5,621 nucleotides of DNA from a virus (IMGVR_UViG_2563366946_000003), one strand, 5' to 3'; counted from the stretch's first letter, positions 1 through 5,621 are shown. Notes: generated by a model from the letters alone, not told the origin. A program made the numbers and translations.

Positions 1-77
1 GAGTCTTGAGTCTTGAGTCTTGAGTCTTGAGTCTTGAGTCTTGAGTCTTGAGTCTTGAGTCTTGAGTCTTGAGTCTT
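1..77. repeat. Perfect tandem heptanucleotide repeat (GAGTCTT)x11, beginning at the window edge so the array may be longer
   Basis: Direct reading: 11 uninterrupted GAGTCTT units at 1-77, followed by AAC. The plus strand has TGA in every frame; the minus strand (AAGACTC)n has no stop in any frame. Confidence 0.95.
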
Positions 78-235
78 AACATATTAGTATCCTACGTTAT
101 TTTACCACTAGTTACTTTTCTTGTCATTAAAAAGCATTTAAATTTTTATATTTAATTTCGTTGACGTCAATGTTTTTTGCCAATGTACTTACTTCTTTAT
201 GTGATCAGTTCATATTTTTGACGCCAACGAAACAT

Positions 236-1207
236 TTAGTGCTTCCCTTCTATTAAGTCTAACCTAGCTTTTATTCTTTCTATTTCTCTGCGCTGCCATG
301 CTGCCTCGATATAGAATAAGAGATCAGGTCTGACCCCCCATCTAGATCCTGCTGGCGTTATTTCAACGCGCTCAATGATGTCTTCCATTACCATCACTGG
401 ATTATCATCCTCATCAACAATGATGCTCCCGTCATTATCAGTCAGCGGCATTTCCCTTTGGCCAGTAATGACGTCATCATATACTGCGGGATAATCGTCA
501 TAGCAAAGAAAGGCATAGCGGCATGTTGTGCTTTCTTCTTCCATGAGTCCGTGAGAAATAAGAACATCACGAAGTTGCTGCGCGATTACACCATGATGTA
601 TCCTCGCCCCTTCTTCCCCCTTTATAGCGACAGCGTTCAGCCATTTATAAGCGATATACCTGACGTCACCCCAGGCATCCAGCAATGTTTCGTCAGGAGA
701 GACCGGCTCTGTCTTTAATGTTCCGTCACTGGTAGCCACAGGATTGGAGCCAAGATAAACTATCGAGAACCTGTTTCCCGGACCACCAAGAGCATTTACA
801 TTATCAAGATAAGGTTTAACATCTCCGTTCTCAAAAAGATGTTCGAGTGCGTTATATACCGCGCGACGTGGAGTACTGCTTCTGGAACCATGCAACGTTA
901 TCATTGCACCATCTGCTGAAGACGTTGTTTCACCGCCGCTAACGATTAATCTCTGAGCGGTAACATCATCAGACGGTACTTTCTTCGCAATAATGGCGTA
1001 ATTACCCTCAAGTTTGACTTCCGCGCGAACTTGTCCTGATGTACCTGCATGGACAGTCAGTGACTGGACGGCAACATCATCTGTGAAATCAACGGGTACA
1101 GGAACCGTCCTCACGCCTGACGTCGACATAAAAGTAGGAAGCGTTCTGTTAGGAGTGGCTCCGTAGACAAAATCCCTTGAAACAAATTCTTCCTGTTTAA
1201 TTTTCAC
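236..1207 (-). CDS. Phage tail fiber/tailspike-like protein, C-terminal fragment with S74-type intramolecular chaperone (autoproteolytic) domain; 5' end probably truncated by IS629
   Basis: 323-aa ORF with TAA stop at 238-236. The C-terminal half carries the pattern I associate with S74 chaperone domains of tail fibers and endosialidases (ATSDGTLKT ... LDAWGDVRYIAYKW ... ARIHHGVIAQQLRDVL). The annotated start is a GTG only 4 bp from the IS629 left end at 1212, so the true N-terminus is most likely missing. Confidence 0.6.
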   Translation of the reverse strand: MKIKQEEFVSRDFVYGATPNRTLPTFMSTSGVRTVPVPVDFTDDVAVQSLTVHAGTSGQVRAEVKLEGNYAIIAKKVPSDDVTAQRLIVSGGETTSSADGAMITLHGSRSSTPRRAVYNALEHLFENGDVKPYLDNVNALGGPGNRFSIVYLGSNPVATSDGTLKTEPVSPDETLLDAWGDVRYIAYKWLNAVAIKGEEGARIHHGVIAQQLRDVLISHGLMEEESTTCRYAFLCYDDYPAVYDDVITGQREMPLTDNDGSIIVDEDDNPVMVMEDIIERVEITPAGSRWGVRPDLLFYIEAAWQRREIERIKARLDLIEGKH

Positions 1208-1211
1208 CCTG

Positions 1212-1236
1212 TGAACCGCCCCGGGAATCCTGGAGA
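1212..1236. repeat. IS629 left terminal inverted repeat (IRL)
   Basis: TGAACCGCCCCGGGAATCCTGGAGA matches the reverse complement of 2497-2521 at 23 of 25 positions. Confidence 0.8.
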
Positions 1237-1265
1237 CTAAACTTCCTGAGAAAGAGGTAAACAGG

Positions 1266-1592
1266 ATGACTAAAAATACTCGTTTTTCCCCCGAAGTCCG
1301 TCAACGGGCAGTCCGTATGGTTCTGGAAAGTCAGAGCGAATATGACTCACAATGGGCGACAATTTGTTCCATTGCTCCAAAGATTGGCTGTACGCCGGAG
1401 ACTCTGCGTGTCTGGGTTCGCCAGCATGAGCGGGATACCGGGGGCGGTGATGGAGGGCTCACCACCGCTGAACGTCAGCGTCTGAAAGAGCTGGAACGTG
1501 AAAAGCGTGAACTGCGCCGCAGTAACGATATCCTTCGCCAGGCTTCCGCTTATTTTGCGAAGGCGGAGTTCGACCGCCTCTGGAAAAAATGA
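1266..1592 (+). CDS. IS629 OrfA (IS3-family transposase N-terminal HTH/leucine-zipper subunit)
   Basis: 108 aa, [50 protein letters not shown]..., ATG 54 bp inside IRL. The heptad-like [24 protein letters not shown] stretch is typical of IS3 OrfA. Confidence 0.93.
1581..1592 (+). other. Probable programmed -1 ribosomal frameshift window (A6 run) joining OrfA and OrfB into the OrfAB transposase
   Basis: TGG AAA AAA TGA at the OrfA end; the OrfB ATG (1589-1591) is in the -1 frame and overlaps the A-run. IS3-family elements characteristically make OrfAB this way. Confidence 0.5.
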
Positions 1593-2479
1593 TGCCACTG
1601 CTGGATAAGCTGCGTGAGCAGTACGGGGTCGGACCGCTATGCAGCGAACTGCATATTGCCCCGTCAACGTATTACCACTGTCAGCAACAGCGACATCATC
1701 CGGATAAACGCAGTGCCCGTGCGCAGCGCGATGACTGGCTGAAGAAAGAGATACAGCGCGTATACGATGAAAATCACAAGGTATACGGTGTGCGTAAAGT
1801 CTGGCGTCAGTTGTTACGGGAAGGTATCAGAGTGGCCAGATGCACTGTGGCACGTCTCATGGCGGTTATGGGACTTGCCGGTGTTCTCCGGGGTAAAAAG
1901 GTCCGTACGACCATCAGCCGGAAAGCCGTTGCCGCAGGCGACCGCGTAAACCGTCAGTTCGTGGCAGAACGACCTGACCAGCTGTGGGTGGCTGATTTTA
2001 CTTACGTCAGCACATGGCGGGGCTTCGTCTATGTGGCGTTCATCATTGATGTGTTTGCCGGATACATCGTGGGGTGGCGGGTCTCATCGTCCATGGAAAC
2101 GACATTCGTGCTGGATGCACTGGAGCAGGCGTTATGGGCCCGTCGACCGTCCGGCACGGTCCATCACAGTGATAAAGGTTCTCAGTATGTATCGCTGGCC
2201 TACACACAGCGGCTTAAGGAAGCCGGATTACTGGCATCAACAGGAAGTACAGGCGACTCGTATGACAACGCGATGGCGGAGAGCATCAATGGTCTTTACA
2301 AAGCGGAGGTAATACACCGTAAGAGCTGGAAAAACCGTGCAGAAGTGGAACTGGCCACACTCACGTGGGTGGACTGGTATAACAATCGACGATTGCTGGA
2401 AAGGCTGGGCCATACTCCTCCGGCAGAAGCAGAAAAAGCTTATTATGCTTCCATCGGAAACGATGATCTGGCAGCCTGA
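1589..2479 (+). CDS. IS629 OrfB (IS3-family transposase catalytic DDE domain)
   Basis: 296 aa in the -1 frame relative to OrfA. DDE-type core visible (WVADFTYV ... HHSDKGSQY ... [11 protein letters not shown]). Confidence 0.93.
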
Positions 2480-2496
2480 GTTCACAGATAAAACAC

Positions 2497-2521
2497 TCTC
2501 CAGGAAACCCGGGGCGGTTCA
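2497..2521. repeat. IS629 right terminal inverted repeat (IRR)
   Basis: Reverse complement reads TGAACCGCCCCGGGTTTCCTGGAGA, matching IRL at 23 of 25 positions. Confidence 0.8.
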
Positions 2522-2776
2522 TCTAAAATTGCTATACTATTCATGTTGGTTTTTCTCCACGGATTTACCGACAACCGAAGCCCTGACTGTTCCAGCAGTT
2601 GGGGCTTCACTGTTTTGATTTCTTTGCCGCATCAAGCATCACTTCTGAAAACGTGCGCTTGCCACTGAATACTCTTTCTCTTCTCAATTTTTCGTTCGTG
2701 CCAAATGATTCGCCATGAACAAAATTTGGTCTTAAAATGGTAATCGCAATCTCTTTGACTACTGCATCCAAGCGAA

Positions 2777-2929
2777 TCACACCGTTACCCCCTCTCTCTT
2801 CAGGCTGTCTATCAGGCGCTTGATAACCTCTGAGTTAAACGACCTGCACTCTTCCTTTGCCCTGCTACCGATAGCATCCTTTAACGACTGCGGCATCCTT
2901 ACCAAAATCTTACTTATTTCTTTCTCCAT
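2777..2929 (-). CDS. Arc-like ribbon-helix-helix (Arc/MetJ superfamily) transcriptional repressor, 50 aa
   Basis: MEKEISKILVRMPQSLKDAIGSRAKEECRSFNSEVIKRLIDSLKREGVTV; the RSFNSEV...SLKREG region resembles P22 Arc (GRSVNSEIYQRVMESFKKEG, from memory). I chose the ATG at 2929 because GGAGGG sits 4 nt upstream; the track's longer ORF (to 2965) starts at a TTG with no RBS. Confidence 0.7.
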   Translation of the reverse strand: MEKEISKILVRMPQSLKDAIGSRAKEECRSFNSEVIKRLIDSLKREGVTV

Positions 2930-2965
2930 GTTACCCTCCACGCAAACAACTCTTTTCGAATACAA

Positions 2966-2994
2966 AAGATAGCAAAGTGAGTATATCTAGTCAA
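2966..2994 (-). promoter_or_regulatory. Putative sigma70-like promoter for the Arc-like gene
   Basis: On the minus strand, TTGACT (plus 2994-2989), a 17-nt spacer, then TATCTT (plus 2971-2966). The -10 overlaps the left operator arm. Pattern match only. Confidence 0.25.
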
Positions 2995-3020
2995 AATTTT
3001 TTTGCATACACTTTGCTATC
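2968..3020. promoter_or_regulatory. Candidate operator: 12-bp perfect inverted repeat GATAGCAAAGTG (2968-2979) / CACTTTGCTATC (3009-3020), 29-bp spacer, between the divergent RHH genes
   Basis: Exact reverse-complement arms read directly from the sequence. They lie between the two RHH start codons and overlap both putative -10 elements. Confidence 0.45.
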
Positions 3021-3022
3021 AA
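3014..3022 (+). promoter_or_regulatory. Putative extended -10 element (TGcTATCAA) for the Mnt-like/peptidase operon
   Basis: TG-n-TATCAA about 22 nt upstream of the ATG at 3044; overlaps the right operator arm. No convincing -35 found. Confidence 0.2.
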
Positions 3023-3043
3023 ATTGAATACCAAAGGTGTTAT

Positions 3044-3292
3044 ATGGCAAAGGGTGTGTCAATTTCTCCAACTACGGTAAGAATCCCTGAATCTTTACGC
3101 GAGGCTCTTGCTGTCAGAGCATCAAAAAATGGTCGCTCTGTTAACTCCGAGATCGTCATGATTTTGCAAGCCGCGATTGATGAAGATAGGTCGCCAAAGT
3201 CAGTTGAGTCATTTGCTCAGCAAGAAGCTGATAAATTCAAAGAGGCGCTACTTGAGACGCTAAAGACCATGTATGCTAAGGATGAAAAATAA
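3044..3292 (+). CDS. Mnt-like ribbon-helix-helix (Arc/MetJ superfamily) repressor, 82 aa
   Basis: MAKGVSISPTTVRIPESLREALAVRASKNGRSVNSEIVMILQAAIDEDR...LKTMYAKDEK resembles P22 Mnt in length, in the NGRS(V/M)NSE motif and in the C-terminal ...LK(D/T)(L/M)Y(K/A)K tail (from memory). AGGTG lies 6 nt upstream of the ATG at 3044; the track's 14-codon N-terminal extension has no RBS. Confidence 0.75.
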   Translation: MAKGVSISPTTVRIPESLREALAVRASKNGRSVNSEIVMILQAAIDEDRSPKSVESFAQQEADKFKEALLETLKTMYAKDEK

Positions 3293-3828
3293 TGCTGCAC
3301 ACAATTCATTTCTTATGCCCTGTTAACACTGCCACTGTTGGGCAACTTCAGAACCACTGTCTCACCGCATTATCTCAAGGCGCAACTGAATTAAATATCC
3401 ATATATCAAGTCAGGGAGGGGAAACTGCTGCTGGCTTTACTGCGTATAACTTTCTTAAGTCACTCCCTGTTACCGTTAGAACTCACAACATAAGCAATGT
3501 TGAATCCATAGCTAATATCGTTTTCCTGGCTGGCTCAGAACGTTTCGCAAACCCATTATCAAGATTCCTGTTACATCCTCTATTATGGTGCTTTGCCTCC
3601 CCAGCCGCCGACCATGCCAGATTGAGAGAGTACGGGAAATGCCTCGATAACGATCTTGATCGCTTCGTTGAGACGTTCAATATCGACATCGGAACCCATA
3701 TTAGGTGGGCATCCCTGATAGCAGACTCGACCATTTTGGATGCTAACAAGGCTCTTGAGCATGGCATAATTAATTCCATAAAAACTGCAAGGCTGGCATC
3801 CAATCAGGCAAACTGGTGGGTTGTTTGA
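3292..3828 (+). CDS. Stand-alone ClpP-fold (S14-like) serine peptidase, 178 aa, translationally coupled to the Mnt-like gene
   Basis: ISSQGGETAAGFTAYNFL aligns with the ClpP [20 protein letters not shown] motif. By manual alignment the ClpP catalytic Ser and His fall on S72 (NVESIAN) and H95 (SRFLLHP), and the C-terminal ALEHGIINSI resembles ClpP AVEYGLVDSI. Its ATG overlaps the Mnt-like TAA (TAATG at 3290-3294). Confidence 0.75.
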   Translation: MLHTIHFLCPVNTATVGQLQNHCLTALSQGATELNIHISSQGGETAAGFTAYNFLKSLPVTVRTHNISNVESIANIVFLAGSERFANPLSRFLLHPLLWCFASPAADHARLREYGKCLDNDLDRFVETFNIDIGTHIRWASLIADSTILDANKALEHGIINSIKTARLASNQANWWVV

Positions 3829-3852
3829 TGGGTAAATCATGATTACTCCTTA

Positions 3853-3879
3853 TAAAAAACCCACCTGACGGTGGGTTTA
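3853..3879. terminator. Bidirectional rho-independent terminator between the convergent peptidase and YafO-like genes
   Basis: ACCCACC (3859-3865), loop TGAC, GGTGGGT (3870-3876), with A6 upstream and TTT downstream. On the minus strand the hairpin is followed by TTTTTTATA. Confidence 0.6.
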
Positions 3880-4326
3880 GTCAAACATAGTGTTTCTAAA
3901 GTCTCTCGCATACCCTGCTAACACTCTCATTCTATTATGATTGTTAGCAGACATGTGAGCTACAGGATGAAAAAGAGCAATCAATGAATACCTGTTCTCA
4001 TCAAAAAGATTTTGTGCATAAACGAGAGCGGTATTGGATGTTTTATGCCACTGCAACTTTTGCGGTGTGCTGATATCTGTGCCATTTTTTATTGGCTCAA
4101 ATTTATTTTCACCAATTGCTAAATGAAGGTGCATAAGGCCTGCATCTTCAATATCAGGAGGTCGATGATAAGAGGTGTCTCTGCCAAAATAGCTGGGCAA
4201 CGTTCCCGTAGACTTGTAGATGATAAAATCATCTACAAGTGTTTGTTTTAAATCAGGAAACTCAACAAAAACCGGGGAGAAAAAATAGTCAAAACTATCC
4301 TGATTATATTCCACGGTTACTTGCAT
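3877..4326 (-). CDS. YafO-family toxin homologue (type II TA ribosome-dependent mRNA interferase family), 149 aa
   Basis: DDFIIYKSTGTLPSYFGRDTSYH ... MHLHLAIGEN ... ALVYAQNLFDENRYSLIALFHP ... NNHNRM aligns well by eye with E. coli YafO as I recall it (ADFISYKRDGVLPDTFGRDALYD ... AHIHLANEN ... HLVYCQGAFDEQAWLLIAILKP ... DNNQMH). GAGGT RBS lies 5 nt upstream of the ATG. Confidence 0.7.
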   Translation of the reverse strand: MQVTVEYNQDSFDYFFSPVFVEFPDLKQTLVDDFIIYKSTGTLPSYFGRDTSYHRPPDIEDAGLMHLHLAIGENKFEPIKNGTDISTPQKLQWHKTSNTALVYAQNLFDENRYSLIALFHPVAHMSANNHNRMRVLAGYARDFRNTMFD

Positions 4327-4334
4327 GTTTTACC

Positions 4335-4901
4335 TCAGTGGAAGTTACCAGAGTGAAACACACGAGTCCCGTGCTCAGCAAGCGCACGCAAACCAGCCAT
4401 ATCTACGGAACTATCAAAAACAACCGGAACACATGAGCGTTGTTTAATAAGACTATTCAGGTTGGTTACGGCAGATCTGGCATCAGCAACAACGATATAG
4501 ATATCTCTTGCGATCTCTTTAAAATCAGCAGAAGCTTCTTTGAATACCGATTTCATTGCCCCTTCAAGTCCTCTCAATTGATGCTCTATCAATCGAGACT
4601 TTTCTGGTTCAATGATAGACAACACATTGTCTACATTCTCATCGGTAGCGTTTGCAAGAACACGATAAGCGTATTTCAGCATTCGAGACAATTCTTTAAT
4701 CGAAGACACCGCCTCATGAAGCTCATCATTAGCCCGTTCACTGCTGAATGAGGATTGATGGTAAGCGTGCTGAACGTTATCAGTAACAACCACCTCACAA
4801 CTGAACGCAGAAGCTTGCTGTAATAGCAAACCTATTGCGACTCCAGCTTTGGCAGCGTTCAAGCTAAACATTTCATCAATCCCATTAGTCTCATTGCTCA
4901 T
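4335..4901 (-). CDS. Hypothetical 188-aa protein encoded immediately upstream of, and co-operonic with, the YafO-like toxin; family not recognised
   Basis: Start placed at ATG 4901 (MSNETNGIDEMF...) because a perfect AAGGAGG lies 5 nt upstream; the track's TTG start at 4931 lies upstream of that RBS. The TGA stop (4337-4335) is 8 nt from the toxin ATG and overlaps its RBS. Not Phd/YefM/YafN-like in size or sequence. Confidence 0.6.
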   Translation of the reverse strand: MSNETNGIDEMFSLNAAKAGVAIGLLLQQASAFSCEVVVTDNVQHAYHQSSFSSERANDELHEAVSSIKELSRMLKYAYRVLANATDENVDNVLSIIEPEKSRLIEHQLRGLEGAMKSVFKEASADFKEIARDIYIVVADARSAVTNLNSLIKQRSCVPVVFDSSVDMAGLRALAEHGTRVFHSGNFH

Positions 4902-5076
4902 ACAAACCTCCTTCTTATCGGAGATTATCAATAGCTATGCATCCATTGAATACACGCTATGCGCAATAAGTTTACGTCACGTGATATCATTATGCAACCA
5001 CCGTTCTATCACCGACTAACTTTACTCCCACTCCTATACATCATCTGGTATCCTGCGCAAAACTAAGGAGGTTGGT

Positions 5077-5427
5077 GTGAATGCTCAGTCTGTCATCATG
5101 GTTTTCCTTGGGCTGATTGTCGCAAAACTATATCCAGACTGGTGGAAAGGGGCATTAGCTACTGTCGCCATCTATTTGCTTTTATCCATCGTTAAGCGAT
5201 CACTCGCTGAGACCGTAAATCAAGCAAAACGTTTCTCATTTAAGAGTTTAATAAACTATGTTACTGGGCTTATTTTTTGCCTTTCAATTCTGATCGCTTC
5301 GGCTTTTTTGCCCGTATCAATAGCTAATTTTTTTGGCGCACCATATGAGGTAGGTTATCTATTCTCTGTTTCCTGTCTTGCCATTGCTCTTCTTTACCTG
5401 TGGACGAGATCAAAGAATAAAAATTAG
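5077..5427 (+). CDS. Small integral membrane protein, 116 aa, about 4 predicted TM helices; function unknown
   Basis: GTG start at 5077 preceded by AAGGAGG (5064-5070). Four hydrophobic stretches: SVIMVFLGLIVAKLY, ALATVAIYLLLSIV, LINYVTGLIFCLSILIASAFL, GYLFSVSCLAIALLYLW. Confidence 0.6.
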   Translation: MNAQSVIMVFLGLIVAKLYPDWWKGALATVAIYLLLSIVKRSLAETVNQAKRFSFKSLINYVTGLIFCLSILIASAFLPVSIANFFGAPYEVGYLFSVSCLAIALLYLWTRSKNKN

Positions 5428-5551
5428 CCATCCGTGGCTGCCAGTTATTGAGCTTCTTTTTGTGATGCCTGTGCGACTCTGGTGAGCGATTGTGTGACCG
5501 TACTGATCGCTCTGTCATATGCTGTGCTACCTTTTGGCGTATTTGCCAGAC

Positions 5552-5621
5552 TGAACCGCCCCGGGAATCCTGGAGACTAAACTTCCTGAGAAAGAGGTAA
5601 ACAGGATGACTAAAAATACTC
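5552..5621 (+). mobile_element. Second IS629 copy, left end only (continues beyond the window), same orientation as the first
   Basis: 5552-5621 is identical to 1212-1281 (IRL plus the start of OrfA). Confidence 0.9.
5606..5621 (+). CDS. IS629 OrfA, 5' partial (second copy)
   Basis: ATGACTAAAAATACTC, identical to the start of OrfA at 1266. Confidence 0.85.

Follow-up and report, generated by a model that had tools for sequence, protein, structure and literature searches.

Introduction

The AAGACTC repeat of the gene neuO has been described previously (PMC3046976), as has the prophage CUS-3 (PMC9659370). CUS-3-like phages are considered "prone to decay", losing content while neuO is kept, and in many isolates CUS-3 has pseudogenised tail and coat genes and a shorter distance between neuO and dsdC (PMC9659370). 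As for the insertion sequence (IS) IS629, PMC9943667, citing Ooka et al. (2009), ascribes many genomic deletions to it. IS629 copies without a target-site duplication are common, because a duplication of 3-4 bp was found at just 21 of 47 IS629 sites in O157 (Rump et al., 2011, PMC3271280). Pruning by IS629 and copies without duplication are thus already described for this element, and the decay of CUS-3 has been described in general terms. Here we analyze a stretch of viral DNA, IMGVR_UViG_2563366946_000003 (5,621 nucleotides, the whole of which we call the window), that belongs to a degraded CUS-3 prophage and in which copies of an IS629 isoform very probably bridge deletions.

Adjacent deletion is a known outcome for elements of the IS3 family. 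IS911 and IS2, both of this family, undergo intramolecular transposition that leads to deletion or inversion of adjacent DNA, including by way of tandem dimers. Tn3411, the citrate composite transposon, is flanked by IS3411, an isoform of IS629.

Results

The window is 100% identical to positions 9766-15386 (reverse complement) of scaffold KB732222.1 (GCA_000350645.1; locus L004), of which it is exactly one contig. A tRNA-Arg gene, intS and neuO are the adjoining loci on this scaffold. The locus is a degraded CUS-3 prophage, P22-like and K1-specific, located at argW and carrying the K1-capsule O-acetyltransferase gene neuO. It has the argW/intS site, the AAGACTC array of neuO, an endosialidase tailspike gene and an immI region of the P22 type. 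It does not have a complete inducible genome: 24.1 kb of the ~40-kb prophage are gone, and the replication gene is interrupted.

The source prophage contains three copies of the same element, two of which reach into the window:

1212-2521, plus strand: copy 1, complete IS629 isoform, 1,310 bp
1212-1236 and 2497-2521: left and right terminal inverted repeats (IRL and IRR) of copy 1, 25 nt each, 92% complementary, TGAACC...GGTTCA
1266-1592, plus strand: orfA of copy 1, HTH_Tnp_1 (Pfam)
1589-2479, plus strand: orfB of copy 1, HTH_21 and rve (Pfam)
1547-1663: ALIL frameshift pseudoknot in copy 1, 120 bits
5552-5621, plus strand: left end of copy 2, 70 nt, an exact direct repeat of 1212-1281 in the orientation of copy 1
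L004 reverse complement 18536-19816: copy 3, inverted relative to copies 1 and 2, its middle an N gap

Copy 1 can justifiably be called an isoform of IS629, because it shares 96.03% identity, gap-free across all 1,310 bp, with the copy annotated as IS629 on pO157 Sakai, which we used as reference with a threshold of at least 95% nucleotide identity for an isoform. Length, TG...CA inverted repeats and two overlapping open reading frames (ORFs) with a -1 frameshift are as expected for the IS3 family, and identical IS copies carry the RefSeq annotation "programmed frameshift". An original prediction, made from the window's sequence, had placed a complete IS629 at 1212-2521 and a second copy in the same orientation from 5552, and the exact 70-nt repeat bears this out. 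Copy 3 is a clean insertion with the 3-bp duplication GTA that disrupts the replication (O-like) gene. The IS629 isoform has therefore entered the source prophage at least three times, and two of its copies are now at deletion junctions.

The deletions become apparent from comparison with IS-free intact relatives, which include the prophages of S88, APEC O1 and many others. The prophage of strain S88 (NC_011742.1, 2492900-2537900) served as CUS-3 reference (coordinates as locus L005, used throughout). Window positions 1-5551 are matched in two pieces that span 7,191 bp, in APEC O1 and others as in S88:

Window 1-1211: S88 2660-3870
Window 2522-5551: S88 6821-9850, 100% identical
DNA after copy 2 on the scaffold: resumes at S88 31018, in a dnaB-like gene

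Three truncated genes lie at the junctions inside the window:

236-1211, minus strand: 3' remnant of the endosialidase tailspike gene, C-terminal ~324 codons (S88 2895-3870)
2522-2544, minus strand: first 23 nt of ant, all that remains of it (S88 coding sequence 5941-6843)
5445-5551, minus strand: 3' remnant, 107 nt, of a gene for a DNA-ejection protein of the P22 gp16 type (S88 coding sequence 9744-11756)

Copy 1 replaces 2,950 bp (S88 3871-6820) and joins the 3' third of the tailspike gene to codon 8 of ant. This site has lost 1,970 nt from the 5' end of the tailspike gene, a spacer of 100 nt and 880 nt of ant, which is 903 nt long when complete. According to the scaffold, copy 2 replaces 21,167 bp (S88 9851-31017) and joins the last 107 nt of the gp16-type gene to the dnaB-like helicase gene, which has also lost its last 219 nt. 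Gone with them are most of gp16, the remaining ejection, head, portal and terminase genes, the lysis cassette, Q and the nin genes. The tailspike-ant interval is present to at least 80% in 121 of 5,426 complete E. coli genomes.

We therefore consider it highly probable that copies 1 and 2 each bridge a deletion. The DNA that remains is colinear with S88 throughout, which identifies the rearrangement as a deletion and not an inversion. The original prediction had argued for an IS-mediated rearrangement instead of a clean insertion and had left the choice between deletion, inversion and inter-copy recombination open. The 2,950 bp that are missing relative to IS-free CUS-3 support the rearrangement, and the inversion falls away. 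IS629-free relatives, which that prediction had proposed as a test that could refute it, have the intact gene order but extra DNA at the junctions, which favors rearrangement. Excision of the IEE type can be rejected as well, because it removes the IS, whereas here the IS is still present at the junction.

The flanks of the two copies tell the same story. Copy 1 lies between CACCCTG and TCTAAA, so that CTG faces TCT and there is no target-site duplication, just as had been predicted. Copy 2 is preceded by GCCAGAC, which includes the predicted CAGAC, and followed in the scaffold by CAT; GAC and CAT do not form a duplication, and CAT does not provide the match to CTG that had been looked for on this side. 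At six of six clean insertions of the IS629 isoform that we examined, an exact 3-bp duplication is present:

CUS-3 prophages (n = 5): source copy 3, GTA; FY26, AAC and GCC; E10, CCC and ACC
Another endosialidase prophage (n = 1): 23CRST038, GTC

Because all six carry the duplication, its absence at copy 1 is meaningful, and it reflects a later deletion and not a different element. Copies 1 and 2 lack the 3-bp duplication because the flanks of each derive from two different places. Two independent simple insertions, with duplications that were overlooked or have mutated, would account for the intact IS ends and for nothing beyond that. Since 2,950 bp separate CTG from TCT in the intact prophage, and 21,167 bp separate GAC from CAT, this explanation is excluded, and we leave it next to no probability.

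The edges of the window are contig breaks induced by repeats, the heptanucleotide array on one side and IS629 on the other:

L004 reverse complement 9381-9765: 385 N before the window, inside the neuO heptanucleotide repeat
L004 reverse complement 15387-16521: 1,135 N after the window, inside IS629 copy 2

Copy 2 is visible as 70 nt only because the contig breaks at the second gap. In the scaffold it consists of these 70 nt, 1,135 N and the last 95 nt of the IS, after which the dnaB-like gene follows. The predicted second copy is thus firm in its left 70 nt; how long it is and what it joins on the right depend on the scaffold link over the N gap.

This brings us to the points that weigh against the deletions. 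The source assembly is a draft made from short reads. Copy 1 is internal to a contig, but to connect its flanks the assembler had to resolve a repeat of 1.3 kb that is present in several copies. On the right of copy 2, the connection is no more than a scaffold link over 1,135 N. None of the source strain's five IS junctions is contiguous in any of the 5,426 complete E. coli genomes, where all "100%" matches to them consist of two separated pieces, and these genomes hold no precursor or sister allele of the source junctions either. The truncated tailspike ORF in its ATG-started 297-aa version was found in one public assembly only, GCA_000350645.1; its longest version (323 aa, GTG start) had no match in the assembly index. 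As junctions and truncated ORF are private to one assembly, there is no independent confirmation of the source arrangement.

An assembly artefact would explain such privacy. The flanks of copy 1 would then come from different IS629 copies that were joined through a collapsed repeat, and the DNA that seems to be missing would still be in the genome; had two clean insertions been misjoined in this way, the expected junctions would be the IS followed by CTGAAACAA, or GCTTCT followed by the IS. The draft state of the scaffold, the two other nearby IS copies left as N gaps, the gaps that bound the window on both sides and the absence of the arrangement from any other genome all fit this explanation. 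However, the scaffold order is colinear with S88 on both sides, and the gap sizes fit one IS each (70 + 1,135 + 95 = 1,300, compared with 1,310). Moreover, three long-read genomes have the same type of IS-bridged tailspike-ant deletion. A chimeric contig is thus unlikely, and we assign an artefact only a small probability. What doubt is left about the deletion is mostly doubt about assembly error.

The IS-bridged tailspike-ant deletions in long-read genomes have end points that differ from those in the window (S88 coordinates):

Source of the window: 3870/6821
SCU-116 and three others: 3411/6374
FDAARGOS_1301 and three others: 3102/6076
APEC E19019 and three others: 3098/5850

The end-point zones are S88 3098-3870 and 5850-6821 (loci L003, L006 and L007), and the two zones share no sequence beyond chance matches of 15 nt. 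SCU-116, FDAARGOS_1301 and APEC E19019 each have a second IS at a large deletion in the late region. The four alleles are not derivable from one another, because each retains DNA that is missing from the others. A homology search with the tailspike remnant for further truncation alleles returned a single partial protein. Looking up the 57-aa ORF of the immI region to find prophage variants yielded intact prophages, one more allele of the SCU-116 type, an IS3-family element of ~1.25 kb and a variant moron cassette, with no new IS629 tailspike-ant deletion, so that the sample stays at n = 4.

How was the DNA removed? Most likely, each copy first inserted in the ordinary way at a site that is now one of its two junctions. 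The IS ends would then have attacked a nearby site on the same molecule, and this one intramolecular step, carried out by the transposase, would have removed the DNA on one side of the IS as an adjacent deletion. Two strains are informative in this respect. The left junction of FDAARGOS_1301 is base for base the clean GTC insertion of 23CRST038, a different endosialidase prophage near yfgI, and this match identifies it as the original insertion site, with loss of DNA on the IRR side. In BEN5202 (L010 11275-14930), a segment of the tailspike-ant region is inverted between two oppositely oriented IS629 copies. The two copies of the duplicated 3-bp target, TTC, are inverted relative to each other (TTC ... 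GAA), an arrangement that is the signature of intramolecular transposition. A further 1.63 kb are gone beside the right end of the new IS629 copy in this strain.

The DNA could instead have been removed by homologous (RecA) recombination between two clean insertions in the same orientation, one in the tailspike gene, duplicating CTG, and the other where ant begins, duplicating TCT. The same scheme would apply to copy 2, and the two routes differ only in the step that removes the DNA. The product of recombination is identical to what is seen, and as both routes leave this product, sequence alone cannot separate them. Double hits are frequent, as FY26 and E10 have two clean IS629 copies each, a few kb apart in CUS-3. 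The FY26 copies, 2.7 kb apart, keep the recombination route fully plausible, and the window's own two direct copies, 3,030 bp apart, are exactly such a substrate. All this counts against adjacent deletion as the sole candidate. On the other hand, both the FY26 and the E10 pair are inverted and not direct, and none of the genomes that we examined shows a pair of clean direct copies with the tailspike-ant interval between them. For recombination, every deletion would also have had to be preceded by two insertions, in four lineages and twice in each, and the inverted 3-bp duplication of BEN5202 points to transposase-driven intramolecular events at this very locus. We put recombination at somewhat less than an even chance. 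The FDAARGOS_1301 junction, the inverted duplication in BEN5202 and the lack of an observed double direct insertion place adjacent deletion slightly ahead.

IS629 is not the only IS in these prophages. A different IS3-family element of ~1.25 kb (L014, L015 and L017) has inserted cleanly in ClpP-like and tailspike genes. One of its copies lies at a ~30-kb deletion (S88 10024/40159) that extends almost to torI.

Between copies 1 and 2 lies the 3-kb block that the original prediction had taken for an accessory segment bracketed by two IS. Direct copies at 1212 and 5552 do flank 3,030 bp, copy 2 being complete by scaffold inference only. The predicted AT-richness is also real, with a G+C content of 42.2% in 2522-5551 compared with 54.0% in the IS and 46.2% in the tailspike remnant. 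The block contains the following features:

2545-2611, plus strand: sar antisense RNA of P22-type immI (Rfam RF00262, 83.9 bits, E 3.4e-17, full length)
2607-2780, minus strand: 57-aa ORF, phrog_17642
2777-2929, minus strand: arc (Pfam Arc, 5.1e-12)
3044-3292, plus strand: mnt-like Arc/RHH repressor gene (Pfam Arc, 9.5e-11; S88 annotation)
3292-3828, plus strand: ClpP-like gene (Pfam CLP_protease, 2.2e-11; S88 annotation)
3877-4326, minus strand: YafO-like toxin gene (Pfam YafO_toxin, 3.4e-22)
4335-4901, minus strand: 188-aa ORF upstream of the YafO-like gene
5077-5427, plus strand: small hydrophobic ORF (RefSeq start 5098; hypothetical in S88)

Two same-orientation copies around a segment of lower G+C content, with toxin-like and protease-like genes inside, could suggest a composite transposon that has captured the module or can move it. 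However, the block is the prophage's own immI/moron region, unchanged in place and orientation. It is colinear with an IS-free prophage, to which it is 100% identical, and its edges are remnants of the native neighbors ant and gp16. On the outside, the flanks CTG and CAT differ from each other. As a unit (at least 80% coverage), the block is absent from 72,556 plasmids and 50,697 phage records, and in the chromosomes examined it is in its native CUS-3 context. With passenger DNA that is native to the site, unmatched outer flanks and no such unit found elsewhere, we reject a composite-transposon origin, to which we give only a very small probability. The predicted role as cargo thus fails, and the predicted mobilization as a composite unit is unsupported. 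The predicted loss of the block by recombination between the direct copies is mechanistically possible, but has not been observed, and the toxin-like gene within the block might counter-select it.

The sizes of the four tailspike-ant deletions are strikingly similar (2,751, 2,950, 2,962 and 2,973 bp), even though no two of the strains share either end point. The order of the left end points agrees in rank with that of the right ones (r = 0.97), and in simulations the chance of three of four sizes falling within 24 bp was 0.0006 to 0.004, a post hoc figure. Other paired events are of comparable spacing: 2,718 bp between the clean copies of FY26, 2,662 bp between donor and target in BEN5202, and 3,030 bp between copies 1 and 2 of the window. 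It is conceivable that IS629 acts in cis at a preferred distance in CUS-3, with paired events ~2.66-3.03 kb apart. We regard this as unlikely, the sample being small and chosen after the fact. If true, it would point to a step that measures distance when an IS3-family element transposes locally or deletes adjacent DNA, or to a zone of exclusion near a copy already in place. The other reading is strong selection, acting again and again to remove endosialidase and ant while neuO and the immI/toxin module are spared.

There are also recurrent insertion sites:

GTC at S88 3100-3102: struck in two different prophages, with the E19019 junction 4 bp away
Start of the ClpP-like gene: two IS variants in opposite orientation, 1 bp apart, 99.9% and 96% identical to the window's copy
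Positions of these hot spots: L021 (23CRST038) 9177-10486; L006 9444; L007 9440; L002 12273; L008 13961

The remaining features of the window are those of a CUS-3 remnant. At its left end lies the beginning of neuO:

1-77, minus strand: phase-variable heptanucleotide array of neuO, 11 copies of GAGTCTT (AAGACTC on the coding strand)
80-82, minus strand: neuO start codon, followed by TT and then by the repeat array

The hexapeptide acyltransferase gene beside intS has this AAGACTC array as its 5' end. Tandem Repeats Finder reports a period of 7, 11.0 copies and 100% matches; the 11 repeats are the contig portion only of an array that the 385-N gap breaks. The tailspike remnant is 99.9% identical to S88, where a 981-aa tailspike is annotated. 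As predicted, its ORF (236-1207, minus strand) has no 5' part: it encodes the C-terminal 323 aa of the endosialidase tailspike, with the Pfam domains End_tail_spike (2.4e-78) and Peptidase_S74.

In the immI region, S88 has annotated genes identical to arc and to the 57-aa ORF, and phage records carry a sar/ant/promoter annotation at the position that matches sar in the window. With ant gone, sar would be without its target. The 5' end of the intact sar gene is 23 nt away from the IS end, and any sar promoter elements further upstream than that would have been replaced by the right end of the IS. The mnt-like and ClpP-like genes share one base (TAATG, 3289-3294) and, going by this overlap, are likely co-transcribed. 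A protease-like gene within an immI region is unusual, and PHROGs ties the ClpP-like gene only to head-maturation proteases.

The YafO-like gene and the 188-aa ORF, which is possibly its partner, fall into the PHROGs families phrog_1651 and phrog_8416, both without assigned function. Among the unknown ORFs of the 3-kb block there was no PADLOC hit for defense systems, and the small hydrophobic ORF had no family match in Pfam, PHROGs or PADLOC scans. Other CUS-3-like prophages (L012, L019 and L020, around ~6000-6900, equivalent to window ~3877-4901) have a gene with a SocA/Panacea domain and a different small ORF instead. The slot between the ClpP-like gene and gp16 thus seems to hold exchangeable cassettes of the toxin-antitoxin type.

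Discussion

The source prophage has lost the capacity to produce virions or antirepressor. Still present are int, neuO, the immI repressors, the ClpP-like and YafO-like genes and the early region. This explains why neuO of the source strain sits in a prophage that is unable to make particles: the endosialidase tailspike, the antirepressor and all late genes are gone, and the capsule-modifying gene, the integrase and the immunity and toxin-like genes are kept. We see in this a textbook case of prophage domestication by insertion sequences, which matters little beyond bookkeeping. For annotation, it means that the truncated tail-fiber ORF and the 3-kb block should be labeled as CUS-3 remnants and not as an IS-borne island. 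The clustering of event distances at ~3 kb, together with the recurrent hot spots, is the sole point that may repay further work.

How does the locus compare with known systems? Like Tn3411, it has two direct copies of an IS629-type element that flank a few kb of DNA. Unlike what is expected of such a transposon, the enclosed DNA is native, the outer flanks are without duplication, and the unit has not been seen elsewhere. The resemblance to intramolecular transposition of IS911 and IS2 is closer: one IS is kept between one old and one new junction, there is no duplication, and BEN5202 supplies the inversion counterpart with its inverted 3-bp duplication. The difference is that for the deletion in the window, recombination between copies gives the same product.

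With the published decay of CUS-3, the locus shares the prophage, the integration site and the neuO repeat. It differs in that PMC9659370 has no occurrence of the term "insertion sequence" and no junctions, and in that the source junctions are private to one strain.

The comparison with IS629 of O157:H7 is the most extensive. The host is different, of a K1 or extraintestinal pathogenic type here and not enterohemorrhagic E. coli, and IEE-dependent events in O157 remove the IS, whereas here it stays at the junction. The IS itself is the same (an isoform with 96% identity), as is its preference for prophages, judging from PMC3271280 and PMC9943667. In O157, too, clean sites have duplications of 3-4 bp and more than half of the sites have none (PMC3271280), and deletions that adjoin a retained IS629, as in the window, are found in PMC9943667.

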